Assembly: GCA_038884755.1 (NCBI GenBank)
Contig: JAWABJ010000001.1
Coordinates: 512,001-576,000 of the forward strand
Direction: 5' to 3'
Origin: Candidatus Norongarragalinales archaeon
GTDB taxonomy: Archaea; Micrarchaeota; Micrarchaeia; Norongarragalinales; Norongarragalinaceae
Length of the DNA: 64,000 nt
The notes under the pieces were generated by a model. The model saw only the letters and a program-made list of their open reading frames with translations, did not search any database and was not told the DNA's origin. Position numbers and translations under genes: made by a program. Of the stretch, positions 2,900 through 26,796 are shown one piece after another. Each line of letters begins with the position of its first letter. The stretch's first letter is position 1.

Positions 2900-2928
2900 G
2901 CGTATTTGAAGAGTGTGAGCATTCAAAA

Positions 2929-4065: not shown

Positions 4066-4123
4066 TTTAAATAGGGAAAAAACGGTAGTAAAAAGAAAAG
4101 CAAAAAAAAACGAGGGGTTTCGA

Positions 4124-4549: not shown

Positions 4550-4553
4550 TCCG

Positions 4554-5198
4554 CTAGGCAGAGCATTCCACTTGCGCCAGAATCGATTCCTTTGGAATTA
4601 TCCCGGCGTAAGCCTTTTCTTTAATCACTATCGAAGGCGTTTGCGTTATAGCGTAACGGCTTTTTATCGCGTTCACAACGCCTATGTCCAAGTCAGTGGG
4701 AAAAGCAAAAACGCGCACGTTCTTGCACTCGTCCCTCACGCTGTTGAGAATCTGCGCTTGAGCGCGGCATTCCACGCAATCCTGCGTGTCCGGATAGAAA
4801 TACATTATAGGAATCGTGCCGGAAGAGCCGCACACGTTTTGCAGCTGTTGCAGGTAAAGCCACAATTCTGAATTCGCCAGGATAAACCTCCGCTTGGTGC
4901 GCGAAGTGTCCGCGAGGACGGCCGAAGACTCCGTCGCCTGCAATTGGTTGAACAAATCGTAAAGTTTGTTTATTTGCGAGCGGGCGGTTTCCTCGAGCGC
5001 GGGACACGCTTCGAGCGAGTTGTTGTAAGTTTGGGTGTAAAGCAAGAGCGTGCGCGCGGACTGCATTTCCTCCTCCAAGTCGGCGACACGCGCTTGCAAG
5101 TCTTGCGCCCGCGAGTCGTCCAAATACTTCACGAAAAAGTAGTTGCCCGTGAACAGCACGAGCGTGATCACCAAAGCCTTCACGTAAACGCTTACCAT
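4554..5198 (-). CDS. Membrane-anchored protein with C-terminal thioredoxin-like domain
   Basis: N-terminal TM, coiled coil, MYFY...CVEC and TPSIVI. Confidence 0.65.
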   Translation of the reverse strand: MVSVYVKALVITLVLFTGNYFFVKYLDDSRAQDLQARVADLEEEMQSARTLLLYTQTYNNSLEACPALEETARSQINKLYDLFNQLQATESSAVLADTSRTKRRFILANSELWLYLQQLQNVCGSSGTIPIMYFYPDTQDCVECRAQAQILNSVRDECKNVRVFAFPTDLDIGVVNAIKSRYAITQTPSIVIKEKAYAGIIPKESILAQVECSA

Positions 5199-5199
5199 G

Positions 5200-6540
5200 C
5201 TAAGCTTTCACCTGCAATTTATTCTCCCATCTTCTTTCCGTGCCGACTATCTCGTGCACCATTCCAGAGAAATACACGAAGGAAATGAACATCGAGTACA
5301 AAGTCATGAAAACCACCATCGGCGGGATATGCAAAAGCTTGATTTTTTGCTTCGCAATTCCGAAGCTTATCCACACTATGTAAAGCCACACCATTATCGT
5401 AAAGAGGAAGAAGAACACGGAGGAGTTGATTATGGCGCCGGAGTATATGCCGAGGTTGGTGACGAGCGAAGCATCAACGCGCGCTACGCCTATTGCCCCC
5501 AAAAAGTCGTTGACGAAATTCCCGCCGTGAAGGAAAAGAATGCGCGATACCACTATCACGCCCAAAAGCTCGACTGCAAACGAAATCGGGTATACAAACC
5601 TCCCGAAATCGCCGTACTTCGAGTTGAAGAGCATATGGCGGTATTTCCGTCCGTTGAATATCTTTCCCCTCAACCAACGCAATCTTTGTTTGAAAAGCTT
5701 CCCCCAAGAATCTGGAACGTCCGTATGAACGACTGCGTCGGTGGTCAAGCGGATTTTGTAGCCTGCGGACTGCAAGTGCAAAGCTACCTCCATGTCTTCC
5801 GTGATGTTGCCCTCGTCGAAACCCCCTATTTTCTTTAGCGCATTAACGGAGTATACCGACATCGGGCCGGGGGTTACGATGAGCCCGTCGAGTTCTGCGA
5901 GGGCGGTGTGCCAAAAGCCGAAAGCAACGTAATATTCGATTTCCTGAATTTTCTGCACGAAATTCTTGGGTTTTTCGACGCACACCAACGCGGTTACGGC
6001 GCCAACGCCCTTGCCGTCGAACAAACGCACCATTTTCTTCAACGCATCGCGCGCGGGGTAAGTGTCTGAATCGATGCACGCGACTATTTCGCCCTTCGCC
6101 TTTCCTAACGCGAGGTTGAGCGAACGCGCTTTTCCCTGGTTGCTCGCGTGACGTATTATTTCGAGCGAAGGAAAGCGTTTTTTGAGGTCGTAAAGGATTT
6201 TCGCAGTCCCGTCCGTACTGGCGTCGTCCACTACCACGACCTGCAGTTTTTTCGGGTATTCCAGCGAGAACACGCTTTCAACGCAGCGCTCTATTGTTTT
6301 CGCGCTGTTGTAGCACGGGATTATCACGCTCGCCGCGGGGAATTTGTTCGAAAGCTTTTGCTCGCTTTTCTCCCAGAATTTTAATAGGTATACTACGGCA
6401 ACGTATACGAAGAGGAAGTTGGCAGTAAGGAAAATCACAAGGTACGGCACTACGGCGAAGAGCGCGTAGAAAAACGCGGCGAACAAGCTTACGACTAGCA
6501 GCGCGGAAAACCAAAAGCTGTTGCGCAACCCTTCGAGCAT
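5200..6540 (-). CDS. Processive membrane GT2 glycosyltransferase (cellulose/hyaluronan synthase-like)
   Basis: DDAS, DSD, TED and QRLRW motifs with flanking TM helices; start ATG 6540. Confidence 0.9.
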   Translation of the reverse strand: MLEGLRNSFWFSALLVVSLFAAFFYALFAVVPYLVIFLTANFLFVYVAVVYLLKFWEKSEQKLSNKFPAASVIIPCYNSAKTIERCVESVFSLEYPKKLQVVVVDDASTDGTAKILYDLKKRFPSLEIIRHASNQGKARSLNLALGKAKGEIVACIDSDTYPARDALKKMVRLFDGKGVGAVTALVCVEKPKNFVQKIQEIEYYVAFGFWHTALAELDGLIVTPGPMSVYSVNALKKIGGFDEGNITEDMEVALHLQSAGYKIRLTTDAVVHTDVPDSWGKLFKQRLRWLRGKIFNGRKYRHMLFNSKYGDFGRFVYPISFAVELLGVIVVSRILFLHGGNFVNDFLGAIGVARVDASLVTNLGIYSGAIINSSVFFFLFTIMVWLYIVWISFGIAKQKIKLLHIPPMVVFMTLYSMFISFVYFSGMVHEIVGTERRWENKLQVKA

Positions 6541-6602
6541 TTCACACCACACAAGCTGAAAACTAAGGCTTTGATTAAAACATATTATGGAAAAGCGGGG
6601 TT

Positions 6603-7331
6603 TTAAATTTCCCTTATTATCGCGTAGCGCTTGGTTTTGATGCCCAAAAGAAAGTTGAGAGTAGTTTTCCCCCAGTCCCACAACAAACCCGCCAGCCCGA
6701 ATTTCTTGAGACGGCGGTTGGAAGTATACGTGACGACGTTCTTGTCGTAAACCACTTTTCCCCTCTTAGCTATGCGCATGCACAAGTCTTGGTCTTCGCT
6801 CGCTTCCATTTCCTCGTCGAAACCGCCGACCGCGTCGAAGTCTTTCTTCTTGTAGGCGGCGGCGTTGCCTGCAATCACGGGCCGCCCTAAAAGCGTCGCT
6901 ACTTCCACAATCAAATTGAATATTTCGAAAACCCAGTTTTGCAGGAAAGTAGCGTCTTTCGGCATTACTTTCCCGCCGAACCCGACTACTGAGGGTTTGG
7001 AAAACTCCTGCTTCATGCGGTCGAAAAACGCCTTTGGTGGGATGTTGTCGGCGTCGCAAAATACAATCCACGGGTGTTTAGCGTGGCGCGCGCCGGCGTT
7101 GCGCCCGGCGCCTATCGAAGGACGGATTTTCTTGCGCCCGTTCTCGAGGCAAACCTTGTCCGCGAGTTTTTTCGCTATCGCGACGGTCTTGTCCGAACTC
7201 CCTCCATCCGCGACTATCACTTGAGAGTAAGGAAGGGTTTTGCGCAACGCGCGAAGGGTGTTCCCGATGTTTTTTTCTTCATTCAGGGTGGGAATCACTA
7301 CGGAAATTCCAGCGGGACGGTGGTTTTTCAT
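6603..7331 (-). CDS. GT2 glycosyltransferase
   Basis: SVVIPTLNEE, DGGSSD, DAD, GGFDE...ED. Confidence 0.9.
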   Translation of the reverse strand: MKNHRPAGISVVIPTLNEEKNIGNTLRALRKTLPYSQVIVADGGSSDKTVAIAKKLADKVCLENGRKKIRPSIGAGRNAGARHAKHPWIVFCDADNIPPKAFFDRMKQEFSKPSVVGFGGKVMPKDATFLQNWVFEIFNLIVEVATLLGRPVIAGNAAAYKKKDFDAVGGFDEEMEASEDQDLCMRIAKRGKVVYDKNVVTYTSNRRLKKFGLAGLLWDWGKTTLNFLLGIKTKRYAIIREI

Positions 7332-7446
7332 TGGAAATGCAAAGTTTAGAAAGCGGAGCGGAAAGAAAAGCTTTTTGCATCGGAAAAAGGTCGTTCAAAG
7401 GAAAAAAATAAATTCCCCTTTTCTCTGCGTTATTCGCGGGATTGGC

Positions 7447-7644
7447 ATGCTTGATTGGCGGGTGGTACTGGTTTTCGGGGCCGTGATAATAATGTGCGGA
7501 GCCATTTCCATGGCGTATTACTTTGTGATGACGAGCACCACGCCTTTCTCCGCGACCCCGCTTTCGGGTTCACTCGCGCCCCAGCCGCAGGCCGAACGCG
7601 GACCTTCAAAGGCGATAGGCTACGTTACCCTGACGGTCACCTGA
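7447..7644 (+). CDS. Small membrane-anchored hypothetical protein
   Basis: ATG 7447; TM segment, Pro/Ser linker, terminal beta-strand GYVTLTVT. Confidence 0.55.
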   Translation: MLDWRVVLVFGAVIIMCGAISMAYYFVMTSTTPFSATPLSGSLAPQPQAERGPSKAIGYVTLTVT

Positions 7645-7724
7645 GTTTCCACCGCTTTCTTTTCAACAGCTTTTTAAAAGCAGAGTGAGTTGTCTTACTA
7701 TCAAGAGTGAGAGGCTAGAGTAAA

Positions 7725-8993
7725 GTGGAAACCGCCAGAAAGGCACTGCTTTTACTGTTATTGCTGGTCGTGCTTTCAAACAGTGTTTTTTCAGTGGGCA
7801 TAAGGCCCGCGCGCCTCGTTTACCCCTTCCAGGAAGGAAGAGAATTGGGCATGGACTATACGATAATAAACCGCGGTCCCGTCGGCGCGCGTTTTGCGGT
7901 TTACACTTGCGGCACGTTTTTCGACAAAATCGAAATTTCAAGCGTTTCTTCAACGGTTTTTTCCGACAGGGATTGCACTGCAGCGCAGAGGAAGGTCATA
8001 GCCCAGCTTGAGAACGGCGACATTACGCTGGACGAGGCGGGCGTGTTCTTGAATCCGCGCGAGGAGAAAATGATCCAGGCGAAAATAAAACTTCCTTCGG
8101 TCGGGGGCTTCGAGCCGGGAATAGTCGAAACGAGGATAGGCGCGGTTGACTTGCCGTTGACGTTCAAGCCGGGCGAAACGGTCGTGGGCGGCATCGCAGC
8201 CGTTGAAGCGCAGTTGTGGCTGAAAGTGCCTTATCCCGGAAAGCGTTTCGTGATTTCGCCCGCCACTGAAGACGTGGAGTGGGGCAAGAAAGCGAAAGTG
8301 AGGGTTTCCGTTACGAGCGAAGGAAGCGAAGATGTGAAAAACGCTGTTTTAACCGTGGACATTCTCGACTCGCAGGGAGTGCGCAAGGACAGGATTGTTT
8401 TCGACGCCAAGGACATCGCTTCCGGAGAAAGCGTGGAGTACTCCACGTTGTGGGACACCAAGCAAGTGGAGCCGGGCACTTACACGCTGTTGTTCAGGCT
8501 TTCTTTCGAGGGGCAGGCGGTCACCCAGGAAGCCCAGTTCAGGATAGGCGGGCTTGACGTGCGGGTTTCAAGCGTGGAAGCGCAGGCTGTGGCGAAAGGC
8601 GGGATTGCGAAGATAATAGTTTCGGCGGAAAGCAAGTGGGGAGACGCTATTCCCGGCATTTACGCCGACATTCTCGTGAACGACGCGGCCGGGAAAAGCC
8701 TGGTTTCGCTGAAAACCAGGTCGGAGGAAATAGGGCCGTTCGGAAGGTCGGTTTTGGAAGCGTTTTGGGAAACCGGAGACGCGCCTTCGGGAAAATACGA
8801 CTTGCTCGTCACGCTGCATTATTCCAACAAGACTTCGGAAGGCAAGGGCGCGGTTGAAATCATGGAAAGCGTTTCGCAGCAAACGCCGGTAGAATACGTC
8901 GCTCTCGCGGTAGTAGTCATCCTGTTGATTGTAGGCGCGTGGTTTTTGAGGGGCAGGGTAAAAATCGAGCCCGAGCAGAAGAAACAGCGTTAG
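7725..8993 (+). CDS. Secreted, C-terminally anchored multi-Ig-like surface protein
   Basis: Signal peptide, beta-rich domains with WDTxxxxPGxY / WETxxxxSGxY repeats, C-terminal TM and basic tail. Confidence 0.7.
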   Translation: METARKALLLLLLLVVLSNSVFSVGIRPARLVYPFQEGRELGMDYTIINRGPVGARFAVYTCGTFFDKIEISSVSSTVFSDRDCTAAQRKVIAQLENGDITLDEAGVFLNPREEKMIQAKIKLPSVGGFEPGIVETRIGAVDLPLTFKPGETVVGGIAAVEAQLWLKVPYPGKRFVISPATEDVEWGKKAKVRVSVTSEGSEDVKNAVLTVDILDSQGVRKDRIVFDAKDIASGESVEYSTLWDTKQVEPGTYTLLFRLSFEGQAVTQEAQFRIGGLDVRVSSVEAQAVAKGGIAKIIVSAESKWGDAIPGIYADILVNDAAGKSLVSLKTRSEEIGPFGRSVLEAFWETGDAPSGKYDLLVTLHYSNKTSEGKGAVEIMESVSQQTPVEYVALAVVVILLIVGAWFLRGRVKIEPEQKKQR

Positions 8994-9046
8994 GCGAGCT
9001 GGCAAAGCAAAACCGTATTTAAGGCGCGGAAGCTATTTTTCAAATC

Positions 9047-9463
9047 ATGGACAAGGCGCAAACTCAGTTTTACTCCGCGGCGCTGATTGCAATTTCCTTC
9101 GCTATCCTGGCGCTCGGCATGGGCTTGCTGTCGCAAAAAAACTTTTTCAAAACCACGCTGCCCATGCACTTGAGCGTGAGCGAACCGGGAGTGCTGGGCT
9201 TCAACGTTTCCGAATCCCTCGAGTTCGGCGCAATTCCGCCCGGAGCTGGAGGAAGGAAAGTGGTTTTCATCACTAACAACTTTAACTCCGAAAAGACAAT
9301 GTTCCTGCGCGCTTACGGCGGGATTGCAAGTTGGATTTCGGTTTCCCAAAACGGCGTTTCCGTACGCCCAGGCCAGACTTTGAACGTTAGCGTGGTAGCG
9401 CTCGTCCCGCCTTACGCTGCAAAAGGCGATTACTACGGCATTCTGGAAATAACGCTAGGCTGA
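9047..9463 (+). CDS. Small membrane-anchored Ig-like protein
   Basis: N-terminal TM; LEFGAIPPG and VPPYAAKGDYYG motifs. Confidence 0.65.
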   Translation: MDKAQTQFYSAALIAISFAILALGMGLLSQKNFFKTTLPMHLSVSEPGVLGFNVSESLEFGAIPPGAGGRKVVFITNNFNSEKTMFLRAYGGIASWISVSQNGVSVRPGQTLNVSVVALVPPYAAKGDYYGILEITLG

Positions 9464-9488
9464 AAAAAACAAACGAAGCAAAGGGGAT

Positions 9489-10649
9489 TCAGAATTTCCT
9501 GTAAAACTTTTCGTAGCTTTTCGCGGTCTCGTCCCAAGTGAATTTCTTGACGGCTATTTTCCGCCCTTCCGCGCCCATTTTCCTCGCGGTCTTCTTGTTT
9601 TGCAGGAGGAAGGTTATGCGCTGGGCCAGCGCCCTCGCGTCGCGCGGCTGCACGAGAAAACCGTTTTTCCCGTGCTCGATTATTTCGGGAATCCCGCCGA
9701 TGTCCGTTCCAACCACGGGCTTTCCGGTCGCCATTGCTTCGACCACGACTATTCCGAACGGCTCCCACAGTGAAGGCAGCACAAAGCAGTCGCAAGCGGC
9801 GTACAGCGCGGCCAAGTCTTTCTCGGAAAACCGTTCGGCTAGGAAAGAAATTTTTTCTTCCACGCCGAGCTTTTTCGCCTTCGCCTGCAAGTGTTCCAGC
9901 AAAGGCCCCCTCCCCAAAAGAACGAAGTGGGCTTTCCCGCCGAGCTCCTTATCCACTAGCGGAATCGCGTCAAGCAAATAATCCAGCCCCTTTTGCTCAA
10001 CCAGGCGGCACACGGTCAAAACTATTTCCTTTCCTTCTGCACCCACCAAGTCCTTCAAAATCCTCTGCCCGGAATTGCGGGGGTTGAACGCGCCCGTGTC
10101 CACGCCGTTGTAAACCACTTGCATGGGCACGCGGGTTCCTTCCGGCACGGTGATGTCGAGCGTGTTCTTGCTCACGCCCGCAATGGCGTCGCAATTCTGC
10201 ATTATCTTCCGCCCGTAAACGTCGTCGTACAACCCGCCCACCAAGTCCGTCGGCAGGTCTATGCCCTGCGGGCGGGCGTTGTGCAAGGTGAGCGCCAGTT
10301 TTTTCTTCAGGATTTTTTTGACCGTGAAGATTTCGAACATGCTGTAGACGAAGCGGTTGTGAATGTGCACTACGTCCGCTTGCTTCGCTTCTTCCACCAA
10401 GTCTGGCCATGGAAGCAGGTATAGGGGGACTGGCGGGGGAAGCGGATGGGGAAGCCACGTCAGGACCGCTGCAGGCATCCTCACTATTCGCACGCCTTGG
10501 AATTCTTCCTCGCGCTTGGTGTGCGGCAGCATCGACGTGAGCACGGTGACCTCGTGCTTTCGCGCGAGCCGCCTGCACGCTTCGAACAAGTGCTTTTCAG
10601 TTCCGCCTGAGTAAGGGTAGTAGAAAGGGTTGAGCATCAGCAAGCGCAC
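9489..10649 (-). CDS. GT4 glycosyltransferase
   Basis: PYSGGTE; RLVEQKG; EPFGIVVVEAMATG. Confidence 0.92.
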   Translation of the reverse strand: MRLLMLNPFYYPYSGGTEKHLFEACRRLARKHEVTVLTSMLPHTKREEEFQGVRIVRMPAAVLTWLPHPLPPPVPLYLLPWPDLVEEAKQADVVHIHNRFVYSMFEIFTVKKILKKKLALTLHNARPQGIDLPTDLVGGLYDDVYGRKIMQNCDAIAGVSKNTLDITVPEGTRVPMQVVYNGVDTGAFNPRNSGQRILKDLVGAEGKEIVLTVCRLVEQKGLDYLLDAIPLVDKELGGKAHFVLLGRGPLLEHLQAKAKKLGVEEKISFLAERFSEKDLAALYAACDCFVLPSLWEPFGIVVVEAMATGKPVVGTDIGGIPEIIEHGKNGFLVQPRDARALAQRITFLLQNKKTARKMGAEGRKIAVKKFTWDETAKSYEKFYRKF

Positions 10650-15608: not shown

Positions 15609-16208
15609 ATGAAAATCGAAGAAAAAATAATGCTGCTTTTAGTTCCGATTGCTTTTGTTGCTATAATGTCCGCCGCGGTTTCGGCAGACTACGCGCAAAC
15701 CACGGTGTTCTTCAACGTTCCTACTTCAACCGCATTTACCGTTACGCTTCCGGGCCAAGGTGCGGTAAGCTCCAACAGCACTCAAAACCCCAACTCTCCG
15801 CCGACCGCAAACATTGAGTTTAACGCAAGCAGTTCCACTGTCAACAACGTAGTCCCTTGCGTTACGGGCGGCTCGTGCCAGTCCGGCGAAGGGCCGTCAG
15901 GAACGCCCATATTCCAGTATGACAACACGGGCAACGTCAACATTTCAATCCAATTGATTTTCAACTCCACGCTTCCATCGGGAGTAACCGTTCGCGCTAA
16001 CAGCAGCTGGGACAACGGCGGGGTAAGCAACGGAACTGCATTCGCCGGCGACAGGCCGGTCAACGCGACTGAAAACACTACGTTGGGAACCAACATCGAC
16101 TGGAACGCGGCGAGTTTTCTCAACGTTTACATGTACGCCAACTTCAGCGCGGTCGTGGGTGGAACCAGGACGACCAGGCTGCTCAACCACACGAGCGTCT
16201 CAAGCTGA
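15609..16208 (+). CDS. Secreted beta-rich glycoprotein; putative major filament subunit
   Basis: Signal peptide ending AVSA/; mature N-terminal strand DYAQTTVFFNV; NTGNV motif; many NxS/T sequons; GGAGG SD upstream; function is inferred. Confidence 0.6.
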   Translation: MKIEEKIMLLLVPIAFVAIMSAAVSADYAQTTVFFNVPTSTAFTVTLPGQGAVSSNSTQNPNSPPTANIEFNASSSTVNNVVPCVTGGSCQSGEGPSGTPIFQYDNTGNVNISIQLIFNSTLPSGVTVRANSSWDNGGVSNGTAFAGDRPVNATENTTLGTNIDWNAASFLNVYMYANFSAVVGGTRTTRLLNHTSVSS

Positions 16209-16327: not shown

Positions 16328-17233
16328 TTGGAAGGCTTCAAGAAAATAACGGCATTCGCGGGAATCTTTTTCTTGGGAGTGCTTCTTTTGGGCTGCGTGC
16401 AAGGCGGAGAAGCCAACTCGGCAAACGAAACGCAAAGCATACCTACACCAGAGCTTACAAGCGCAGAGCAAGAGCTCGTCAAATACCCTGAACTTGCGGG
16501 TTTCATCAAATCATACCAGCAGGTGGGCGCACCCGCGCAACGCCCCGACTACTTGCCCAGCATAGTCTTCTCCAAACTCCCCCCGTTTCCCAGAGACTTT
16601 TACTCTGTTGATTTGCTGGTTGAAAACGGCATTTTCAGCGACATGAAGCTCATCGAGGAAGCGTATTGGAAGCAACCCGAATTCTATCCTGAATTCGAAA
16701 GGCAGGCCGTGCTGGCGTACCAAAAGCCGCCCACCGACCGCTGGGCTGCGTTCGGAATAGGCTCGTACCCTTCGGAAGTTGGAATCTTGAGCCCGCGAAA
16801 CAACGTTTTCGAAGTCAACTTTTTCATCCACACTAGCTGGCTGGTGCAAACCTACCAGGGAACTCGATTCAACTACGGCTTTCCAGCCAAAGGCGAGTTA
16901 CTCAAGTCAGACTTTCCCGACGGGACGAGAAACGTGACGCAAGACCCTGAAGTGGTGGCAAAGTATTTCGACGTTGAAATAACGCCTAGGGAAATCCTTT
17001 TGGAACCGGCGTTCCCGGTTTTCGAGCCCAACTGGGTGCAGAAAATAACGGTTAGGGTGAAAGTGAAAGACGCGCCGCCCGGAAGGTATTACATAGCAAT
17101 CGGCAGCCAAAGCCCGTCCAAGGAAAAGGCGGACGAGTGGCTTTGGAAGTATAAAACGCGTTATACTGACGCTGCAAACTCTTTCGGCGGCGTGATACAG
17201 CCGTGGCTCGGCATTTTCATCGACATAACGTGA
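16328..17233 (+). CDS. Lipoprotein of unknown function, paralog of 26044..26796
   Basis: LLLGC lipobox; LPPFPRDF, EAYWKQPE, RWAAxGxGSYP, SWLVxxYQG, PVFxxNWVxK. Confidence 0.75.
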   Translation: MEGFKKITAFAGIFFLGVLLLGCVQGGEANSANETQSIPTPELTSAEQELVKYPELAGFIKSYQQVGAPAQRPDYLPSIVFSKLPPFPRDFYSVDLLVENGIFSDMKLIEEAYWKQPEFYPEFERQAVLAYQKPPTDRWAAFGIGSYPSEVGILSPRNNVFEVNFFIHTSWLVQTYQGTRFNYGFPAKGELLKSDFPDGTRNVTQDPEVVAKYFDVEITPREILLEPAFPVFEPNWVQKITVRVKVKDAPPGRYYIAIGSQSPSKEKADEWLWKYKTRYTDAANSFGGVIQPWLGIFIDIT

Positions 17234-17292: not shown

Positions 17293-18990
17293 ATGCTAAA
17301 AGGGAGAAAGCACTCGTCAGCGGAAATCCTCCTGGTTTTGACGGCAGTTTTAGCCGGAATCGCACATTCTGAATTCGGGCAAGGGGGAATTTTCTTCGGG
17401 GTTACGGAAACCAATCCCATAGTAAACATAACCAACATCGTGTTTTCCCCAAGCCAAATAGTGCAAGGCTCGACCACAGACGTTTCAGTGTATTTGGAGA
17501 ATACTGGAGGGACTGCCGCGAACACTACCGTCAACATAACGATTTTCTATTCCAACGGCAGCGTTGCAGACGTGATTCAATACGACCCGACGGTCGTCGC
17601 GTCCGGGGGAACGCTGCAGATAATCAAGAGTTATAACACAGACTCTCGGCCGCTGGGCACGTACACGGCGAATGGCACGGGCTACTACTCGTTCAACTCA
17701 AGCAATTTTGAAACCAACACGTTCAGCACCACGTTCCAAATAATCGCCGCCCCGCCTGAAGGCGGTGGGGGCGGAGGAGGGACGGGCGGAGACGTTCGCA
17801 TTCCCGCTCCGACCACGATTCCGCCGGAATTGAAGCCCGCGCCTGGAGGAGGGCTGGAGTTCACGAGGACAACGGTTTTGAAGGAAGTTACTCCAGGGAC
17901 GAATGCGATTGAAAGCATTGGACTTAAAAACAACGAGGAAAACGAGCAGCTGGTGAGGGTGAATTTCGACAAGGCGCCTTGGGTGAGGGCGAGGAGAAGC
18001 GAATTCATCATGCTTGCGAAAGAAGAACAAACAGTCAATTTGCTCATAGACATTCCCGAAAACGCTAAGCCTGGAGACTATCTCGCGCAAATGAGCTTGG
18101 AAACCGACTCGGGAGTCGCCAGCGAATTCATGGCCATACGCGTGAAGCCCAAAATCCAAAGCCCAATAGCAACAAAAACCATTTTCCTCGACCGCAACCA
18201 GCGTTTCACCCTCGTCAAAATACAAGTTGAAAACCCGTCAGACCAACTGATTCCAAAGGTTTTGGTTGAAGAAGAGATTCCCCGCGCGCTCGCGACCGAA
18301 GAAAGCAAGCTTCGCTTTCTGGACAAGCCGGGGGTCGTCACGAACGACGCGCCGTTATCCGTAGCGTGGACTTTCAGCGACATTCTCCCGCAAGAGACTG
18401 ACACCATCTCCTACCAGATAAACACTTTGCTCGGGGAGTATTCCACTTACGCCTACTGGCCGATAAAACAAGTGGTCATTCCCGACGAGGTGAGTTTCGA
18501 AAGCTTGGTGAGGCTGGTCGAACTGCACTCGCCCACGTTCGCGCCTGGCGAGGAGAAGGAAGTCACGGCAAGAATTTACTACACGGGCTTGGACCCGCTT
18601 CCGATAAGCGCTTCGCTTAGCCTTCCCGAGTCATTCCAAGTCACTCCTTCTGCTATAGAACGCACGCTCCAGCCCGCGTCGTTCCAAAACTTCGTTTTCA
18701 AAGTGAAAGCCCCGCAGGAAAAACCCGGCACGTACATAGCCACGTTTTACCTCAACTCGCAGGCGGGAAGAATGCAGAGGACTACCACGCTCATCCTGGC
18801 CGCGCCCGAGGCAGGCAGCGAAGGAATACTGTATTTGGCAGGGGGGCTGGCGATAGTAATCCTGCTGGTTATAGTGTTCACTCTGCGCAACAAGGGGGAC
18901 GGCGTGCAGAAGGAAGAGATTGAAGACATCATAGACCGGGAGACCTACTTGCGCGAAGTCAAGGGAATACTCAAGAAAGGAAGGCCTTGA
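17293..18990 (+). CDS. Secreted Ig/CARDB-like multidomain protein with C-terminal TM; putative filament base anchor
   Basis: Signal peptide ending AHS/, then EFGQGGIFFGV; ENTGG; Gly/Pro linker; C-terminal TM and charged tail; start ATG 17293. Confidence 0.65.
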   Translation: MLKGRKHSSAEILLVLTAVLAGIAHSEFGQGGIFFGVTETNPIVNITNIVFSPSQIVQGSTTDVSVYLENTGGTAANTTVNITIFYSNGSVADVIQYDPTVVASGGTLQIIKSYNTDSRPLGTYTANGTGYYSFNSSNFETNTFSTTFQIIAAPPEGGGGGGGTGGDVRIPAPTTIPPELKPAPGGGLEFTRTTVLKEVTPGTNAIESIGLKNNEENEQLVRVNFDKAPWVRARRSEFIMLAKEEQTVNLLIDIPENAKPGDYLAQMSLETDSGVASEFMAIRVKPKIQSPIATKTIFLDRNQRFTLVKIQVENPSDQLIPKVLVEEEIPRALATEESKLRFLDKPGVVTNDAPLSVAWTFSDILPQETDTISYQINTLLGEYSTYAYWPIKQVVIPDEVSFESLVRLVELHSPTFAPGEEKEVTARIYYTGLDPLPISASLSLPESFQVTPSAIERTLQPASFQNFVFKVKAPQEKPGTYIATFYLNSQAGRMQRTTTLILAAPEAGSEGILYLAGGLAIVILLVIVFTLRNKGDGVQKEEIEDIIDRETYLREVKGILKKGRP

Positions 18991-19104
18991 AAGCAACGCC
19001 ATTTTTAAACTCGCTTTGCGTTCCTATTTTTATAAAAAGCGAAGCGAGAAAAAAGGCCTGCAACTCCCACGGTTGAGAGGGGAGACGAAAAGGGTTTGTT
19101 ATTC

Positions 19105-19905
19105 ATGGCTTTGGGAGATTCGAAAAAAGGAACCCGCGTGATAGGGGTTTTGAGCGGTAAAGGCGGCGTCGGGAAAAGCGTCACTTCCGTCAACATTTCC
19201 GCTTTGCTCAACCGAATGGGAAAACAGACTGTTTTGGTGGACGGCGATTTAAGCAACCCAAGCGTTGGGTTGCATTTGGGACTTGCGTACAATGCGATTG
19301 GATTGAACGACTGCCTGCTGGGAAAACACAAGGTTTCAGACGCTATAGTCATACAGCCGCAAACGGGAATGCGCGTTTTGCCCGCTTCGTTGCGTTACAA
19401 GCGCGATTTTTCTCTCAAGCAATTGAGCAGGGTCATGGGCGAATTGGAAGGATACGATTTCGTGATTATAGACTCTCCGCCGGGGTTGACTGAAGACGCT
19501 TGGCAGATAATGAGCGTTTGCGACCAGGTTTTGCTCATCACCACGCCCGACGTGCCTTCCACTACAGCCGCAGCAAAAACCCTCGAGTTGTGCAAAGAAC
19601 GCGGGACCGAAGCGATTGGCGTGATAATCAACCGAGTCACGAAAGCCAAGTACGAGCTTACGCCCCGCGAAATTTCGTCCATGATTGAAGCGCCGGTCAT
19701 CGGCGAGATTCCCGAGGATTACGCCGTTCCCGCGAGCATAGCCGCGAGAAACCCGTTAGTGCTGTACAAGCCGGACGCGCCTGCGGCGAGAAGCTTCGGC
19801 AGGCTTACAAAACGCATTGTTGGGGACGAGGGTTCTTTCGAAACGCCTTCCGAAGGCTTTATCGCCAAAATCATTGCCGCAATCAAGCGCCTTTTCGGAA
19901 GGTAA
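19105..19905 (+). CDS. minD: MinD/ParA family ATPase
   Basis: Deviant Walker A SGKGGVGKS, VDGDL, IDSPPG, IPED, C-terminal amphipathic helix FIAKIIAAIKRLFGR. Confidence 0.88.
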   Translation: MALGDSKKGTRVIGVLSGKGGVGKSVTSVNISALLNRMGKQTVLVDGDLSNPSVGLHLGLAYNAIGLNDCLLGKHKVSDAIVIQPQTGMRVLPASLRYKRDFSLKQLSRVMGELEGYDFVIIDSPPGLTEDAWQIMSVCDQVLLITTPDVPSTTAAAKTLELCKERGTEAIGVIINRVTKAKYELTPREISSMIEAPVIGEIPEDYAVPASIAARNPLVLYKPDAPAARSFGRLTKRIVGDEGSFETPSEGFIAKIIAAIKRLFGR

Positions 19906-19980: not shown

Positions 19981-21237
19981 TTGGGTTTGTTGAGGGGGCA
20001 AGCCAAGGCGTTTATCGTCTTGCTTTTCGCGGTAGCCGGAGTTTTGCTTTTCGCGTTCAACGCCAGCGGGCCGTCTAGCCTTGGGCAGAGCGACGGGATA
20101 GAAAACTGGACGGTAACGCTTTCCGCCAGCGAGCAAGGCGAAAGCTCGTTCAACTATACTTCCCTGCCGGAAAACCGAATGGGCGTGTTGCGCGTAATCA
20201 AAGACTCGACTAACGAAGACGTCCTGGACTTCGAAAGCGGGCAAACGTGGGTTTATTGCGCTTCGTGCAACCTAAGCGAAAGCACTTACACTATTTTCTA
20301 CCAAACTCCCGCGCCTGCGCCTTCCCCAAGTCCCTTACCGTCACCCAGTCCAACGCCAAAATCCAGTCCTTCACCAGAACCTAGCCCAACGCCATTCCCA
20401 AGCCCGGAAATTTCTCCGGAACCATCGCCTTCTCCGAGTCCCTCGCTTGAACCAACGCCAATTCCAACCAAACCGCCTTCAGGCCAGTGCGGAGTCATAA
20501 CTCAAAACACTGTTTTAGACTCCGACGTTTTTTTCAACTCTGACGGCGGAGTTTGCTTCGACATTCGCGGCAACAACGTGCAATTGGACTGCAACGGGCA
20601 TTCCATAATGGGGAACGGCAAGGGAATCGCCGTTTACGCCACTCAAGCCGAAAACATCGCGGTTAAAAATTGCAGGATAACCAATTTCGGGTACGGCATT
20701 CTTGTTGAAGGCAACGCGGGTACGCCGGCGTTCAGCGGGTTTGCGGTAGAAAACAACTTTTTGTCCGGCATTAAGAGCGTGGGCATTGGTTTTAGGGGCG
20801 CTTTCAACTCCGTTTCCGTGTCTAACAACACGCTCGAATCCACGGGGGAGCGGGGAATTTGGATTGACGGCTTGAACGGCTTTGAATCAAAAGGCGTTTT
20901 AGTCTCTTCAAACCGCATCTCCGCCTGCGAAAACGCGCTTTTGCTGGATGCGATAGGCGGGGTTGTCGCATCTGGAAACTTTGTCGAAAAATGCAGCAAC
21001 GGCGTCACGCTTTCGTCGGCGTTCAAAAACACCGTTTCGAAAAACACCATAGGCGTTTCGAACGCGGCTTTTTGGATTGAAAGCGAAGACGCGAACGAAA
21101 ACGTTTTCTCGGAAAACTCCGGCGCGGCTGCGGTGGCGGTCAAGCGCCACCCGCGTTCTCAAAACCAATTCAACCAAAACTCTGTCGCTGCGCAGTTCAA
21201 CGAGCAGGAGTTTGAAGAAACGCAGATAGAGGGCTGA
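19981..21237 (+). CDS. Secreted protein with Pro/Ser linker and right-handed beta-helix (NosD/pectin lyase-like)
   Basis: N-terminal hydrophobic segment; (PS/PT)n linker; LDCNGHSI...KNCRITNFGYGI and repeated xxNxx coils. Confidence 0.75.
   Translation: MGLLRGQAKAFIVLLFAVAGVLLFAFNASGPSSLGQSDGIENWTVTLSASEQGESSFNYTSLPENRMGVLRVIKDSTNEDVLDFESGQTWVYCASCNLSESTYTIFYQTPAPAPSPSPLPSPSPTPKSSPSPEPSPTPFPSPEISPEPSPSPSPSLEPTPIPTKPPSGQCGVITQNTVLDSDVFFNSDGGVCFDIRGNNVQLDCNGHSIMGNGKGIAVYATQAENIAVKNCRITNFGYGILVEGNAGTPAFSGFAVENNFLSGIKSVGIGFRGAFNSVSVSNNTLESTGERGIWIDGLNGFESKGVLVSSNRISACENALLLDAIGGVVASGNFVEKCSNGVTLSSAFKNTVSKNTIGVSNAAFWIESEDANENVFSENSGAAAVAVKRHPRSQNQFNQNSVAAQFNEQEFEETQIEG
20305..20480 (+). repeat. 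Pro/Ser/Thr low-complexity linker coding region
   Basis: TPAPAPSPSPLPSPSPTPKSSPSPEPSPTP..., with degenerate codon usage. Confidence 0.8.
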
Positions 21238-21239
21238 AA

Positions 21240-24200
21240 ATGAAGAAAACGCTTCTTTTAGCAATCGCTTTTTTCCTTCTAGCCCAAAACGCTTATGCGG
21301 TCATAAACGAGTACAACGCCGATTACGCCAACAGCGGGTATTTGAACGTCACGGGTTACAATCACACTAACGGCGTTAATTCGGCAACCAACTTTTCCGA
21401 CGACATTTACTTCGGGCTCAACGACTCGAATGCGCACGTTTACGCAAACAAATCGCCTTTCTTGACGGTGTGCGGCGTTGACAACGCCGACGCGACGATA
21501 CCGTTCTGCAGGATTTTCAATTACACTGGCGAAAGCGTTACAAACAGGACGGCGACGGACATAGGAAGTAGTGCGGCAGAGTGGTACGTCTTGAAAGGAA
21601 ACCCGTTTACCAACGAGTTGTTCTTGTGCATAAGCGATGCTGCCGACGATTTGAAGTGCCAGAATTTCAACGGCAGCACCTGGACTTCAACCTTCACCAT
21701 GACCACGAACGACACTACGGTCGACGCGCGCAGTTTCGACATCAACTTCGAAAGCAAGAGCGGAAGGGCGGTAATTGTTTACAGCGTGAACGTCGCAGAC
21801 ACTCTCGCGTACAGGTATTGGAACCAAAGCAGTTGGAGCAAGGAATACTGGCTCACCATGACGAGCGCGGCTACTCTATCGTGGGTAAGGCTGGTGGCAG
21901 ACCCGAACTCGAACAACATGACGGTCGTAGCGCAAAACTCTAGGACCGACGGACAGATTTTCACCGCAAGGTGGAACGGCACGTCTTCCACCTGGTCTGC
22001 CAGCCAAAACGTTACCGCAGGCACTGCAGCCGGTTCCGACTCTTCGGCAGTGGGCATACAGGCATTCGACGCGGCGTACAACAACGAAAGCGCCGCGCTC
22101 ATAGTGTACAGCAACAATGCCACGGTTGGAGCGGTATTCGCGAAAATGTTTTGGCCCAACCAAACGCTCGACGCGCAAGCGCTCGTGGGGTACGGAGGAG
22201 CAGACCAAGTGAAGTACGTTTCAGCCGCGTCAATGCCCGGCTCTTCGAGAATAGGGTATTGTTGGATTGACAACGGAGGAGGCACGACTACGGATGATTT
22301 GTTGTGCAACGAGTGGGAGTATTCCAGAAACTTCACGCAAGCAGAACCAGACTCCACCATAGACGACGACACTTCAACCCAAGGGCGGCAGATGGACGTG
22401 GTTGCGATAGAAGAAATCGGCGGCTGGGCCGTTCCCTACGCCGACAACGGCGTCGACATGCCTACGATAGCAAGGTGTTTGAGCAAATCCGACTGCCAAG
22501 CAGGCACTTGGGGAACCAACACTATGTTCACTGGACCTAGCCCTGCCGCAGACATGAGGCACGTCCGCGCGGACACGAGCGTCATGAACAAAAGCCAGGC
22601 TATAGTAGGATGGAAGAACATCGATACGACCGCGCCTTCGGAAACGTTCTGGGGAATGTTTTACTGTCATTCCGGCGGCTGCGCCTTGAAACACGACACT
22701 GATTCGATTCAACCGGCAACCGCTTCCGCAGCGTTGTTCGCAACTTTCGACGTCGCGAAAGACGAGTACAGCAATTACACGCTCGAAACTTGGTTCAACT
22801 CCACGCCCACCACCGACGTTCCCGCCGGCGCAACGATAGAAAGCGTGAACGCCACGGTGGAATTCAAATCGGCGTTTCCTGGCAATTTTTCCACGTACAT
22901 CTACAACTGGAGCAACTCGCAGTGGAACTTCTGCCAGTCGCAAGTGGTAACTGCGAATACTGAATTGTTCTTGAACTGCAGCGTTTGCTCGAGCGGGTGC
23001 TTGGTTACCGGCGACCCGGTAAACTTTACGGACAGCGTGGGCAACGCACCCAAGGTGATACGCATTTCATTGAACGAAACCATTCACAATCTCGCCATCA
23101 ATGAATCCAACGTTAGCATTGATTACGTGAATTTCAACGTTACTTACAGCAATCCACAAGCCAACGCAGCACTGCGTCTAGCCCAATTCCGCTTGTGGGA
23201 AAGCTCTTCGACAACCATCGGCCAAGGCGCTCTCACCGATTTGAAGTGCAATACTACTAGCTCGTTCGGAGCCAACATCCTCATCACACCAGGAGGAATT
23301 TCCTGCAACAACACCGCCCCTTCGAAAAGTTATAGGGCGGAAATCCGCGTGTGCAACGACGGCGCGAGCGGCGCGAACCAAACGACTTTCGACTACATCA
23401 ACCACAGGTTTCTTTCAACGCAATACTTGGGCGCTTTGACTGCAAACGACTGCGGGCACGGAGACAACGGAAGCGCTTGGAACGGCACGCTATGCAATTC
23501 TTACAGCGAAAGCTCTTTGCTCACAGTGCAAATCGCGAACGAAAGCGCTGGAGACAAGCATTACCTCCCGAGCGGAGACGGTTCCACGCGCGACGATAAT
23601 ACTTGCGAGTATTACGCGTATCGCTTTACTACCGGCGCGCCCGACTGGGTTATCACAGACAACAGCAGGATTAACACCACCGGCGCGTCCAACGGCTCCA
23701 ATCCCGCGCCAACAGAAAACGCGAACCTAAACGTTACGTACAGCGAAACCGCGTTCTCGTTGTACTACCCGTCGACCGGCTGCACTTCAGGAAAAGGGTC
23801 TGACGGAAGGCTTAGGGCGAGATACTACAACGAAACTTGCGTCTTGTCCGGAAGCCACGGGTGCGACGTTCAAAACGCCACGTTCCAAAACTTCAACGAC
23901 ACCACCACCAAAGCCAACGTTACCATAACCGCGGCAAGCACTGACACGTTGTACTACAATTTCACGGGAATAAACGGAATGCAAGGAAACATCTATTGGA
24001 CCAACAACGTTACAAACGGCGGCCAGGACACGTTTTTAGTGCATTTCTGGGATTGGGTTGACGGAAGGTGGGAGCAAGTCGACAGCAGGACTAACGTCGC
24101 CCCGACTACCAACTTGATAAACCTTTCAAGCTTGAGCACCAACTACCTTTCCGGAGGGTTTCTCAACGTTTCCTTAAACGGAACTACAGAAGGGGTTGAC

Positions 24201-26039
24201 ACAACGACGTTCTTGTACGACATTTACTACCACGGCGACCACTCCGACAAGTGCGCCCGGTGTTACTTCCAACCCGCGACCGCGAATTCGGTGAACGTAG
24301 CATGCGAAGGGCAGACTTCCTCAACTTCGTTTTTGGACTTGCAAAACTTGGGAAGCGTAATAGAAGCCTGGAAAGTGTACTTGTCCAGCGCTCTGCCCGA
24401 GCAGACGCCCGGCGGACCTCGGGCCCTTGCGGGCTACTACCACGGCGCAAGTTCGACTGCGCCATACTTAAACCCGGCGTACAGGGTTTGGAGCAGCGCG
24501 GGCTGGGGTTCGGAAACCAACGCGACTACCCTCGACGCTGGAAGCGACATAGAATGGCTCGTAAATAAATGCGACGTCGCCAACGCGAATTGCATCATGG
24601 CGACGCTTGACGACGAGGGGGAAGTGCAAGCGCAGGCGTATACTGCTGGAGCGTGGGGGAGCGTCGTTGACGTTGCCCCGAACATTGGAACCACGAACGA
24701 CCAGTCTCGCGGCTTTGACGTGGCGTTCGAGCAAACGCGCGGGTGGGGTTTGGTCATTGCAGGAAACAACTCGGCCCGCCCGTACTACCGCATCTGGTAC
24801 CCCGAAAACAATACTTGGACTGGAGTGGAGCAGTTTCCCAACAGCGCTTGCGGGGCAAGCGGAACGCCGATTTGGCTTGACGCGGTTTCCAAGCCGGGCT
24901 CGAACGAGATTCTGACAGCGTACAGGGACGATGCCGGGAGAGTGTGCGGCTACGTTTGGGACGGGAGCAGCTGGGGCAACAGCCGAAGCATAAACAACGG
25001 TTCTGCAGAAACGACGCAAAAAACGGTTTGCGCGGCTTACGAAGAGTCGAGCGGAAAGGGAATAGTGTTTTACGAAGAGCAATCGTCGGCCAACTTGAAC
25101 TACGCAAACTGGACCGGAAGCGCGTGGGAAGTGCCTGCAGCAATATGCAACCCCGCTTGCGTTGCCGGAAGCGAATTCGTTTGGTTCGCTTGCGCGTCAA
25201 TGCCTGGGACCAACCGCATAATGTGGGCTTCTCAAGAGCATAGCGTCGGCGCGGAAAAGGGAGATTTGCTGAAAACCCTTTCCTACTCCTCCGGAGAGCC
25301 GGTTTCGAAAACCGTTATCGACTGGAGCGAATACGTTTCTAAAATCAACTCAAGAATGAAAACTCCGAAGTTGAGCTACGTCACCGGCACGCTGGTCGCT
25401 CGCCAGTGGGACAGGGGCTTCGGCACTGAAGCCAATTTCCCGAGCACGATTGAAGACGATTTGAGCGACAGGCCCATGGTTGACGTTGCGTATATAGGCG
25501 GAAGCGGGCACGCAATGATGGTTTACGCTGCCGACACCAACTTCCCCAACTACAGGACTTGCACTAGTTCTGCGAATTGCCAAGCGGGCACGTGGGGAAG
25601 CGCGAGCGCAACGACGGCAAGCGCCTGCGCAACGGGCGCGCAAGTGGATTTGGTGCGGCTTTACGCTGATTCGGCGACCAACGACACCATGCTGTTGTAC
25701 TCTACGCAGCACGCGAACGAGCCGATTTGCGCGCAGTTGTACAACGGAACGACCGCGACGTGGGGAAGCGTCACCAACCTTGAAGACACCAACCGTTTTC
25801 TCGCGAACGCGAGGCCTTTCGACGTTTTCTTCTACAACGCCAGCGCAAGCGGCGGGTCGCTCGCCATGTTCATGAACGACAGCAGCGCCACGCACCTGAC
25901 GCTGAGCACGACGCAGCAAACTTGGAACGCAAGCGTAGAGCAGTACGAGCATTCTTACGCGTGGCTGTGGGCGAACTACACCAGCTACGACTCTTCAACC
26001 CACGAAAACTATTTGGTGAGCAACACTTCGACGAGCTGA
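21240..26039 (+). CDS. Giant secreted adhesin-like glycoprotein (1599 aa) with two propeller-like regions and a split subunit-like C-terminal domain
   Basis: Signal peptide AYA/; Asn/Thr/Ser/Cys-rich; repeated YRxW...W and WxGxxW blades; no C-terminal TM; three segments resemble 15609..16208. Confidence 0.75.
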   Translation: MKKTLLLAIAFFLLAQNAYAVINEYNADYANSGYLNVTGYNHTNGVNSATNFSDDIYFGLNDSNAHVYANKSPFLTVCGVDNADATIPFCRIFNYTGESVTNRTATDIGSSAAEWYVLKGNPFTNELFLCISDAADDLKCQNFNGSTWTSTFTMTTNDTTVDARSFDINFESKSGRAVIVYSVNVADTLAYRYWNQSSWSKEYWLTMTSAATLSWVRLVADPNSNNMTVVAQNSRTDGQIFTARWNGTSSTWSASQNVTAGTAAGSDSSAVGIQAFDAAYNNESAALIVYSNNATVGAVFAKMFWPNQTLDAQALVGYGGADQVKYVSAASMPGSSRIGYCWIDNGGGTTTDDLLCNEWEYSRNFTQAEPDSTIDDDTSTQGRQMDVVAIEEIGGWAVPYADNGVDMPTIARCLSKSDCQAGTWGTNTMFTGPSPAADMRHVRADTSVMNKSQAIVGWKNIDTTAPSETFWGMFYCHSGGCALKHDTDSIQPATASAALFATFDVAKDEYSNYTLETWFNSTPTTDVPAGATIESVNATVEFKSAFPGNFSTYIYNWSNSQWNFCQSQVVTANTELFLNCSVCSSGCLVTGDPVNFTDSVGNAPKVIRISLNETIHNLAINESNVSIDYVNFNVTYSNPQANAALRLAQFRLWESSSTTIGQGALTDLKCNTTSSFGANILITPGGISCNNTAPSKSYRAEIRVCNDGASGANQTTFDYINHRFLSTQYLGALTANDCGHGDNGSAWNGTLCNSYSESSLLTVQIANESAGDKHYLPSGDGSTRDDNTCEYYAYRFTTGAPDWVITDNSRINTTGASNGSNPAPTENANLNVTYSETAFSLYYPSTGCTSGKGSDGRLRARYYNETCVLSGSHGCDVQNATFQNFNDTTTKANVTITAASTDTLYYNFTGINGMQGNIYWTNNVTNGGQDTFLVHFWDWVDGRWEQVDSRTNVAPTTNLINLSSLSTNYLSGGFLNVSLNGTTEGVDTTTFLYDIYYHGDHSDKCARCYFQPATANSVNVACEGQTSSTSFLDLQNLGSVIEAWKVYLSSALPEQTPGGPRALAGYYHGASSTAPYLNPAYRVWSSAGWGSETNATTLDAGSDIEWLVNKCDVANANCIMATLDDEGEVQAQAYTAGAWGSVVDVAPNIGTTNDQSRGFDVAFEQTRGWGLVIAGNNSARPYYRIWYPENNTWTGVEQFPNSACGASGTPIWLDAVSKPGSNEILTAYRDDAGRVCGYVWDGSSWGNSRSINNGSAETTQKTVCAAYEESSGKGIVFYEEQSSANLNYANWTGSAWEVPAAICNPACVAGSEFVWFACASMPGTNRIMWASQEHSVGAEKGDLLKTLSYSSGEPVSKTVIDWSEYVSKINSRMKTPKLSYVTGTLVARQWDRGFGTEANFPSTIEDDLSDRPMVDVAYIGGSGHAMMVYAADTNFPNYRTCTSSANCQAGTWGSASATTASACATGAQVDLVRLYADSATNDTMLLYSTQHANEPICAQLYNGTTATWGSVTNLEDTNRFLANARPFDVFFYNASASGGSLAMFMNDSSATHLTLSTTQQTWNASVEQYEHSYAWLWANYTSYDSSTHENYLVSNTSTS

Positions 26040-26043
26040 GGAA

Positions 26044-26796
26044 ATGAATGCGAAACTCATTTTCCTGGCGTTGGGAGCGGTTGCGATAGCTGCTGGAGTG
26101 TTTTTGCTTACGCAAACGCCTGGCCAGGCGCCGGCGTCCTGCGACGCTTCGGCCCGTAACTCCCTTCCCCCGAATACGTTCGACAACCTTCCCGACTTCC
26201 CGCGGGATTTTTGCGAGAAGGTTGGCGATTTGAGAAGCAGGAAAATCACGCTGCAAGGGTTTTCTGAGCTGGGAGAAGCGTACTGGCGCCAGCCGGAATT
26301 GCAGCCTAATTTCGAAAGCTATGCAATCCAAGCCATGCTCAACCCGCCGGAAGGGCGTTGGGCGGCTAACGGCTACGGCTCTTACCCTGCCGACTTCGTG
26401 GTGGAATTGAAGCACGGACAGTCTTGGGAAGGAGTGTTTTTCTTCAAAAGCTCTTGGCTGGTCGAATCTTATCAGGGAATAGCGTTAAACCACATTATCC
26501 TTCACGCGAACGAAAGCGTTTTCAAAGGAAAGCAAAGCATTCGCGTAAGCTATTCGCCCGACGAGTTCCTGCTCGGGCCCGCTTACCCGGTGTTTGACGA
26601 AAACTGGGTTGAAAAAATAAGCTTGGGAATCAAATTGGATGAAGGCACGCCTCCCGGCGAGTATTTGGTTTTGCTGAACGTGAAAAGCCCGAAAAGAAAC
26701 GGCGAGTGGGCCGGCGCATATCCTCATTATTTCGACGCTTCGTCGTTCGGGTTGCAGAAGCCGTTCTTGAGAATAAGGCTGTTTGTAAAGAGTTAA
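26044..26796 (+). CDS. Membrane-anchored protein, paralog of 16328..17233
   Basis: LPDFPRDF, EAYWRQPE, RWAANGYGSYP, SWLVESYQG, PAYPVFDENWVEK, PPGEY. Confidence 0.75.
   Translation: MNAKLIFLALGAVAIAAGVFLLTQTPGQAPASCDASARNSLPPNTFDNLPDFPRDFCEKVGDLRSRKITLQGFSELGEAYWRQPELQPNFESYAIQAMLNPPEGRWAANGYGSYPADFVVELKHGQSWEGVFFFKSSWLVESYQGIALNHIILHANESVFKGKQSIRVSYSPDEFLLGPAYPVFDENWVEKISLGIKLDEGTPPGEYLVLLNVKSPKRNGEWAGAYPHYFDASSFGLQKPFLRIRLFVKS

Follow-up and report, generated by a model that had tools for sequence, protein, structure and literature searches.

The window, a stretch of 64,000 nucleotides from an archaeal genome of 0.93 Mb, contains a locus whose genes all lie on the + strand and appear to encode the parts of a surface fiber, from tip to membrane anchor. 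Named homologs of the shaft subunit and of the anchor belong to Candidatus Micrarchaeota and Norongarragalinales. The features, in positions of the window, are the following.

15609..16208, + strand: predicted shaft subunit (pilin), 199 aa; signal peptide 1-26, free N-terminal strand 27-37, beta-sandwich 43-198
15687..15719, + strand: putative donor strand of the subunit, DYAQTTVFFNV, from translation, column profile and structural alignment onto the N-termini of CanA/Hyper2/TasA
16328..17233, + strand: lipoprotein-like, membrane-tethered protein, 301 aa; LLLG-C at residue 23, C-terminal PapD-like beta-sandwich; candidate pilin chaperone
17293..18990, + strand: predicted anchor, 565 aa from the ATG at 17293; signal peptide, donor-like strand, several Ig-like domains, Gly/Pro linker, C-terminal TM segment, cytoplasmic tail
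17371..17403, + strand: donor-like strand of the anchor, EFGQGGIFFGV, from translation, ortholog co-variation and profile-profile alignment
18811..18987, + strand: TM segment of the anchor (about residues 507-535) and cytoplasmic tail, from hydropathy; the tail has a recurring R..Y(L)..(V/I)K pattern
19096..19905, + strand: MinD/ParA-family ATPase directly 3' of the anchor; minD_arch 191 bits (cut-off 202)
19981..21237, + strand: secreted 418-aa protein, Pro/Ser-rich linker and beta-helix; its link to the pilus system is uncertain
21240..26039, + strand: candidate tip adhesin, 1599 aa; subunit-like domain in split collinear pieces
26044..26796, + strand: second chaperone-like copy, 250 aa, a paralog of the 301-aa lipoprotein directly 3' of the tip gene

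Predicted folds and gene neighborhood

Pfam and NCBIfam have no family for the subunit, the lipoprotein-like helper or the tip, and their annotation places no usher family in the locus. The chaperone-like protein is present in only two copies in the genome. Hydropathy gives the anchor one C-terminal TM segment followed by a short tail, and its only Pfam match is NPCBM_assoc at residues 418-487. A gene of 418-495 aa occupies a similar place 5' of the tip gene in loci L006 and L011, the likeness being one of position and size. Among the 48 anchors with enough flanking sequence, 37 have a MinD-type gene no more than 1.5 kb downstream, and we infer that this ATPase could be a positioning factor. 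An amphipathic pattern of the R..Y(L)..(V/I)K type in the anchor tail (18898-18987 of the window, and orthologs) is kept in both classes of locus described below. Judged by eye, several anchors without a downstream MinD gene (L066, L067, L070-L073, L081) have it in its weakest form. It is possible that the tail forms a MinD-binding helix.

Other features were observed along the way. L059 (678-2780), from a same-genus genome, has a gene for a 700-aa membrane protein between the lipoprotein and anchor genes, as does L045. The anchor lies in two overlapping frames in L018 (3742-5198, - strand) and L056 (7016-8780, + strand), through a frameshift or an assembly error. Four glycosyltransferases cluster at 2728-10649 of the window, 5-13 kb upstream of the subunit, which itself has 10 N-x-S/T sequons; a link between the two is possible. 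The ORF at 56215-59313 (+ strand), of 1032 aa, joins a tyrosine integrase domain (aa 140-307) and a P-loop ATPase of the TraG/HerA type (aa 475-801) in one protein. This ORF adjoins a Cdc6-like gene and an HsdM methylase (59931-61079, - strand, and 61232-62920, + strand), local GC falls to 45-49%, and the region probably represents a mobile element, now integrated, that carries this unusual fusion.

The AlphaFold (AF2) model of the subunit (pLDDT 92.7) is a single beta-sandwich with an N-terminal extension, in which residues 21-42 are unpaired and without secondary structure. The family has 294 representatives at E<=1e-3, and a PDB sequence search with the subunit gave 0 matches up to E 10. 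Among 48,161 chains compared by structure, the best rows include Hyper2 (Z 7.0), CanA (6.7), AbpA (6.6) and TasA (6.5), with rmsd 3.3-4.2 over 116-131 aligned residues, and Tafi follows at 5.9; all of these scores are below 8, and unrelated chains (a GH115 enzyme, integrins) fall in the same range. Foldseek with the same model found no match at E<=0.001, its values being 0.03-0.3. Structural rows from the Atlas put camelysin clusters at TM 0.46-0.54 to the subunit, and two nearby Atlas clusters are labeled mostly viral, on few records; of 97 pattern matches in viral contigs none was confirmed. The modeled fold leans toward donor-strand filament proteins as its nearest structural matches, below the safe Z range. 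Tandem duplicate subunit genes with slightly different strands occur in L004 (1182-2426) and L024 (6442-7744), and two tip genes share one locus in L048 (1907-6935), which suggests adaptor subunits or alternative tips.

The model of the lipoprotein (pLDDT 92.3) has a PapD-like sandwich, with EcpB (Z 7.6) and WxLIP (Z 7.5, rmsd 3.1, 113 aligned) among many generic Ig-like rows. The pilus chaperones in these rows are EcpB, WxLIP, YadV, SafB, FaeE, CupB2 and CsuC. Because they are mixed with many rows that are not chaperones, a chaperone role is a lead only, and the same is true of the best Atlas feature score for the helper, 0.84. The second helper copy accompanies the tip gene in the window and in L007, L010, L039 and L042, a position that supports the helper as a candidate pilin chaperone.

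The long ORFs beside the subunit gene end in a subunit domain, which mostly starts at model position 30-40. In most loci the gene order is tip, subunit, helper, anchor. A strand PSSM gave a median of -4.1 bits for the 23 tips scored, 22.3 for 34 subunits and 6.0 for 30 anchors, after 8 tips and 5 subunits without the anchoring motif had been set aside. In the tip of the window, pieces of the domain lie at aa 1011-1055 (25 bits) and aa 1543-1597 (15.5 bits), with a third near 808-855 that is not significant, and an internal insert of about 490 aa interrupts it. The insert is absent from the L042 ortholog (52% identity over 1062 columns), in which the last two pieces are contiguous. The sequencing runs listed as containing the sequence comprise one of DNA, a hot-spring metagenome and possibly the source, and none of RNA. 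In this DNA run, contigs touch all 30 bins, no joint skips the tip insert and none of the pieces listed spans it. The insert resembles the tip's own N-terminal region, with 24-28% identity to that region of the L042 ortholog. A payload inside a pilin domain is unusual, and the L028 and L047 tips also have inserted or extended domains. A 1532-aa ORF on contig C3 with a weak tip-profile score was rejected as a second tip and looks like a generic TM Ig-like protein.

Co-variation of the two N-terminal strands

Directly after cleavage-type sites of small residues, AVSA/ in the subunit and AHS/ in the anchor, the two mature N-termini match over 11 residues with 4 identities and a BLOSUM62 score of 25. 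An earlier reading made from the DNA alone (the sequence-only reading) had proposed this ungapped match, and translation confirms it. The same reading held the remainder of the two proteins to be unrelated, and blastp agrees (best E 1.5). When profiles of 99 subunits and of the first 136 mature residues of 30 anchors are aligned, these 11 columns alone align (probability 12.5%, E 0.0023). The anchor 11-mer is the best non-self match (25; next 23) among 399 ORFs of this genome with an N-terminal hydrophobic stretch, and 3 other 11-mers among the 294,534 in the genome also reach 25. On the family PSSM the strand of the window's anchor is degenerate, at -0.3 bits and rank 6 of 596 in its own ORF. 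By itself, the pair in the window is a modest match that would not convince.

It is the orthologous pairs that take the match beyond chance. Loci were collected from genome contigs and metagenomes, and 30 pairs were kept after 7 duplicate loci (L015, L016, L020, L027, L029, L034, L038) and loci without one partner had been dropped; three anchors with an extra N-terminal domain (L007, L010, L048) were scored separately. The order subunit, lipoprotein, anchor holds in all 30 Micrarchaeota-type pairs. With strand registers taken from separate subunit-only and anchor-only alignments, cognate strands scored 23.6 (BLOSUM) against 11.8 for non-cognate ones over 11 mature residues, with a permutation p of 1e-5. 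When the loci were thinned to a single one for each cluster of anchor identity, p was <=5e-4 at 50% (14 clusters), had a median of 1e-3 and a worst value of 0.011 at 40% (8 clusters), and had a median of 0.048 at 35% (4 clusters). None of 12 shifted anchor windows was significant. For 19 of the 30 anchors the own subunit ranked in the top 3 of 30, and for 2 it ranked below the median. The four extra pairs, registered by hand (the three separately scored anchors and one later locus), gave 16, 25, 23 and 35; all favor the own subunit, and these scores were equaled by 0, 0, 0 and 1 of 30 other subunits.

The features of each clade shift jointly in both partners, as in DYAYTPVTFVV with QYSYSPANFTV (L047), KYTTTLTYFNI with GYTTTPTYLSI (L017) and DFASTRVFFIL with DFAGSRAYFIN (L011). 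The sequence-only reading had described the shared strand by the pattern [DE][YF][AG]Qxx[VI]FFxV. Its second F is indeed shared, but its first F and its Q differ from clade to clade and do so jointly in the two partners. The common core is F at position 9 (30/30 subunits, 24/30 anchors) plus T/S/G at position 5. In 20/30 anchors and 20/29 subunits a cleavage-type site immediately precedes the strand. Strand co-variation across ortholog pairs had been named as the check to make, and it is found, both with one locus per cluster and across the exchange of subunit family described below.

A chance likeness of two beta-strand-like N-termini could appeal to the mere 4 of 11 identities and to the three other 11-mers in the genome that score equally high, and the sequence-only reading had left it open. 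The comparison of cognate with non-cognate pairs refutes it, and the class exchange, the profile alignment, the hand-registered pairs and the L009 stalk (below) also speak against it, so that we give it next to no weight.

Another account makes the likeness a by-product, in which the 5' end of the subunit gene was repeatedly copied onto the anchor gene by gene conversion and no functional pairing is involved. Signal-peptide ends do show a small cognate excess (8.1 vs 6.1, p 0.03), and identical residues use the same codon slightly more often in cognate pairs (74/137) than in others (1150/2557). However, this difference, 54% vs 45%, is about what a shared genome codon bias could give, and the codon sharing of cognate pairs has no clear sign of recent copying. 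Strand similarity also ends sharply at the boundary of the 11-mer. Cognate strands have a mean identity of 4.6/11, and such low identity nevertheless persists across families and both subunit classes, which argues for selection. Copying as the source of the match is therefore highly improbable.

Exchange of the subunit and portability of the strand

A search with the N-terminal alignment of the anchor found anchors in genomes without the subunit family of the window (class 1), including six of the window's own family. Upstream of these anchors, the genes on the contig encode a different subunit (class 2), a different helper that is anchored at its C-terminus, and tips ending in a class-2 subunit domain. 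The anchors are homologous across classes, with E 1e-39 to 1e-100 for the closer ones. HHalign probabilities between classes are about 7% for subunits and 0.2-8% for helpers; at this level of sequence comparison no homology is detectable, and a remote common fold is possible. The sample of the phylum comprised 401 genomes, of which 29 encode class-1 subunits, 41 encode the anchor and 56 encode class-2 subunits; three genomes outside Micrarchaeota were looked at. The genomes with class-2 proteins (loci L050-L056, L063-L082) include those of families f12 and f13, in which several of the fetched loci have tip, subunit and helper with no adjacent anchor.

The class-2 anchor strands follow the new subunit, as in EDQTLGSSATV with SNTELGSSATI (L063) and QDSSLSASLSV with ADSQIIASLNV (L066). 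Across 13 class-2 loci, three of which are near-copies, the anchor score was 13.9 for the own subunit, 7.3 for the remaining class-2 subunits and -1.1 for class-1 subunits; class-1 anchors scored -3.7 with class-2 strands. The own class of subunit is preferred by 30/30 class-1 anchors and 12/13 class-2 anchors. For three of the 13 class-2 anchors (L051, L056, L081), other class-2 subunits score higher than the own one. Five further class-2 anchors have their subunit beyond the end of the contig or at a distance, and 2 of these have a slight leaning toward class 1. Trees were a quick tree and a FastTree tree, and on the latter the class exchange amounts to only one or two events.

The strand also occurs on a different stalk. 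In L009, a Woesearchaeota record, the gene 3' of the subunit encodes an unrelated, Cys-rich TM stalk. This protein opens with a matching strand, to which a Gly/Ser linker is joined; the strand scores 21 and the next best segment of that protein 8. The strand is thus a portable module rather than the strand that opens the domain of the anchor itself. Conversely, a 422-aa ORF at 7725-8993 of the window (+ strand) has an Ig-like domain related to the first domain of the anchor and lacks the strand (the match begins at model position 28), which shows that the strand is specific to the anchor.

The exchange bears on a further possibility, that both N-termini are recognized by another protein, either the lipoprotein or some processing factor, and so co-vary without the anchor strand entering the fiber. 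In class-2 loci the exchange affects the helper as well as the subunit (HHalign probability <8%), and the strand could track the helper. Against this, tips share the locus, often with a helper copy of their own, yet have no strand. The only signal peptidase that a family search finds in the genome lies about 430 kb from the locus, and other secreted proteins lack the strand. For the bacterial Elr pilus, moreover, the chaperone is described as modeled in contact with the body of the subunit, while the donor strand stays outside. We consider a reader of this kind improbable.

A putative base anchor and its relation to known fibers

The reading that we prefer, and hold to be about 80% probable, is that the anchor tethers the fiber to the membrane by inserting its strand into the basal subunit's groove. 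In this model, which reads fiber formation, insertion, polarity and the chaperone role from the sequence match, co-variation, gene order, domain layouts and predicted folds, Sec export would be followed by signal-peptide cleavage that frees the N-terminal strands. Each subunit would then place its strand in the open groove of its distal neighbor, and the most distal acceptor would be the large adhesin with its strand-less subunit domain. The lipoprotein would probably hold subunits until strand exchange. The groove of the most basal subunit would be filled by the 11-residue strand of the anchor, and the anchor's Ig-like stalk and C-terminal helix would suspend the chain from the membrane. A sequence profile search found no subunit-profile match in the anchor beyond the 11-mer. 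With a strand and, by sequence, no subunit-type groove, the anchor would end the chain. As tips appear to have only the groove, subunits both and anchors only the strand, the chain would run tip, n subunits, anchor, membrane. Selection would keep the anchor strand compatible with the groove encoded by its locus. The greater degeneracy of anchor strands (6.0 vs 22.3 bits) may be what is expected of a partner used once per fiber.

The sequence-only reading had cast the anchor as a base protein that plugs the last subunit and tethers the fiber through its C-terminal TM segment. Co-variation supports this, and the geometry puts the anchor at the base, but the anchor could join the fiber either last, as proposed for PamR and ElrB, or first, as for TapA. 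The same contact could be made at the opposite time, with the anchor as a nucleator that gives the first strand, growth outward and the strand-less adhesin capping last. As this differs from the preferred model in order alone, the geometry is identical and all the co-variation data fit. TapA, which donates its N-terminus to TasA, is described as starting TasA filaments (PMC10151520), archaeal AbpB was suggested to act likewise (PMC9245690), and the subunit fold leans to TasA/AbpA/CanA. However, the membrane-tethered PapD-like protein in every class-1 locus suggests tip-first growth at the membrane, as in Elr and Pam, and the prevailing gene order, with the anchor at the end, fits its addition last. 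A membrane-bound helper favors growth at the base. We thus infer that the anchor is probably added last, and regard nucleation as unlikely, though far from negligible.

Several known fibers share parts of this design. In chaperone-usher P pili, PapH is a pilin-fold protein held at the outer-membrane usher; it reportedly lends the last subunit a strand and allows no extension beyond itself. That system has an usher, whereas none was found in the archaeal locus. Nearer in layout is PamR of CPR bacteria, described with an extra N-terminal beta-strand, a beta-sandwich stalk of RbmA-like tandem FnIII domains and a C-terminal TM segment, and proposed from AlphaFold models to end and tether the pilus (PMC13278184). 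The archaeal anchor likewise has a free N-terminal strand that matches the pilin donor and a C-terminal TM helix. The Pam system is also described as usher-less, with membrane-bound chaperone-like proteins and an ultra-small symbiont as host, and its pilins were reported as exclusive to CPR (PMC13278184). By that description, Pam pilins have two domains and donate an internal linker, in contrast to the single beta-sandwich with N-terminal extension of the archaeal subunit. PamT is a lone domain, whereas archaeal tips mostly have several hundred to more than 2000 aa; PamC/D have two domains and a C-terminal anchor, whereas the class-1 helper has an N-terminal anchor and one PapD-like domain. 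Set against Pam as described, the MinD neighbor is a feature of the archaeal locus.

The Elr (WxL) pilus of Enterococcus, compared through ElrB, ElrD, ElrA and ElrE, is reported to have an N-terminal donor on a single-domain pilin, a tip adhesin with a C-terminal strand-less pilin domain, a membrane-anchored chaperone and, in ElrB, a base protein with a strand and no acceptor domain (bioRxiv 10.64898/2026.10.17.759780). The archaeal tips also have a C-terminal strand-less subunit domain, split in the window. ElrB is given as a 13-kDa LPxTG protein attached by sortase, and the system as confined to Bacillota (bioRxiv 10.64898/2026.10.17.759780). Unlike this small protein, the archaeal anchor has about 60 kDa and Ig-like domains and would stay in the membrane. 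WxL Pfam models matched 0/99 class-1 subunits (E<=0.01) and 0/5 class-2 subunits or subunit-like proteins (E<=0.1), 45 helpers had no Pfam match to DUF916/DUF3324, although WxLIP is among the fold matches of the helper model, and no LPxTG precedes the anchor TM segment. With no WxL match, no LPxTG and a single-domain pilin, the archaeal system is a member of neither the Pam nor the Elr family. PamR and ElrB are both described as proposed terminators whose base-anchor roles rest on AlphaFold models.

TasA/TapA, AbpA/AbpB and CanA/Hyper2 are the closest solved folds to the subunit model and align with it including the N-terminal extension. PF12389 (TasA/camelysin) nevertheless matched 0/99 subunits, and the locus has no adjacent signal peptidase (SipW). 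A TM anchor with a co-varying strand belongs to the archaeal locus, and the accounts of the TasA, AbpA and CanA filaments that we drew on note none (PMC10151520, PMC9245690, PMC12518558). Cannulae (CanA/Hyper2) are called chaperone-free in the title of their report (PMC12518558), and both they and Tafi are described as chaperone-independent (PMC12337348). Haloarchaeal Tafi is described as a donor-strand fiber with tip, shaft and a membrane anchor, TafF, which is proposed to end assembly and is modeled as accepting the TafA strand in a pilin-like domain (PMC11821415). That polarity is opposite to the one proposed here, in which the anchor is the donor. Tafi is also reported to use Tat export and a dedicated peptidase, TafD (PMC11821415); unlike this, the subunit signal peptide has no RR, and there is no signal peptidase near the locus.

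Taken together, our results confirm at the level of sequence that the strand match is real and not due to chance, and they most likely reveal a donor-strand base anchor in a previously undescribed archaeal pilus system. A literature search, with supplements and most subscription papers outside its scope, found no description in DPANN archaea, and the Pam preprint was the only paper that joined DPANN, donor-strand, chaperone and pilin. A broader picture is possible, although we hold it doubtful: Micrarchaeota may assemble an adhesive pilus with the help of a chaperone and without an usher, a mode for which only bacterial cases have been described so far, and use it as an organ for finding or holding hosts. 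The anchor would then be a universal socket for exchanged, unrelated cassettes of subunit, tip and chaperone, with only its 11-residue strand re-tuned, and its tail would couple the fiber to a position-setting MinD-type ATPase.

The concept of a base anchor is itself not new, and the finding adds evidence rather than a new class. Co-variation together with the cassette exchange gives independent, evolutionary support for the base-anchor design of the PamR/ElrB type. The finding bears on the question of how DPANN archaea attach to their hosts, and thin filaments of unknown composition have been described on the cultivated DPANN symbiont ARM-1 (PMC11329633). The locus supplies candidate proteins for this attachment and makes the question testable.
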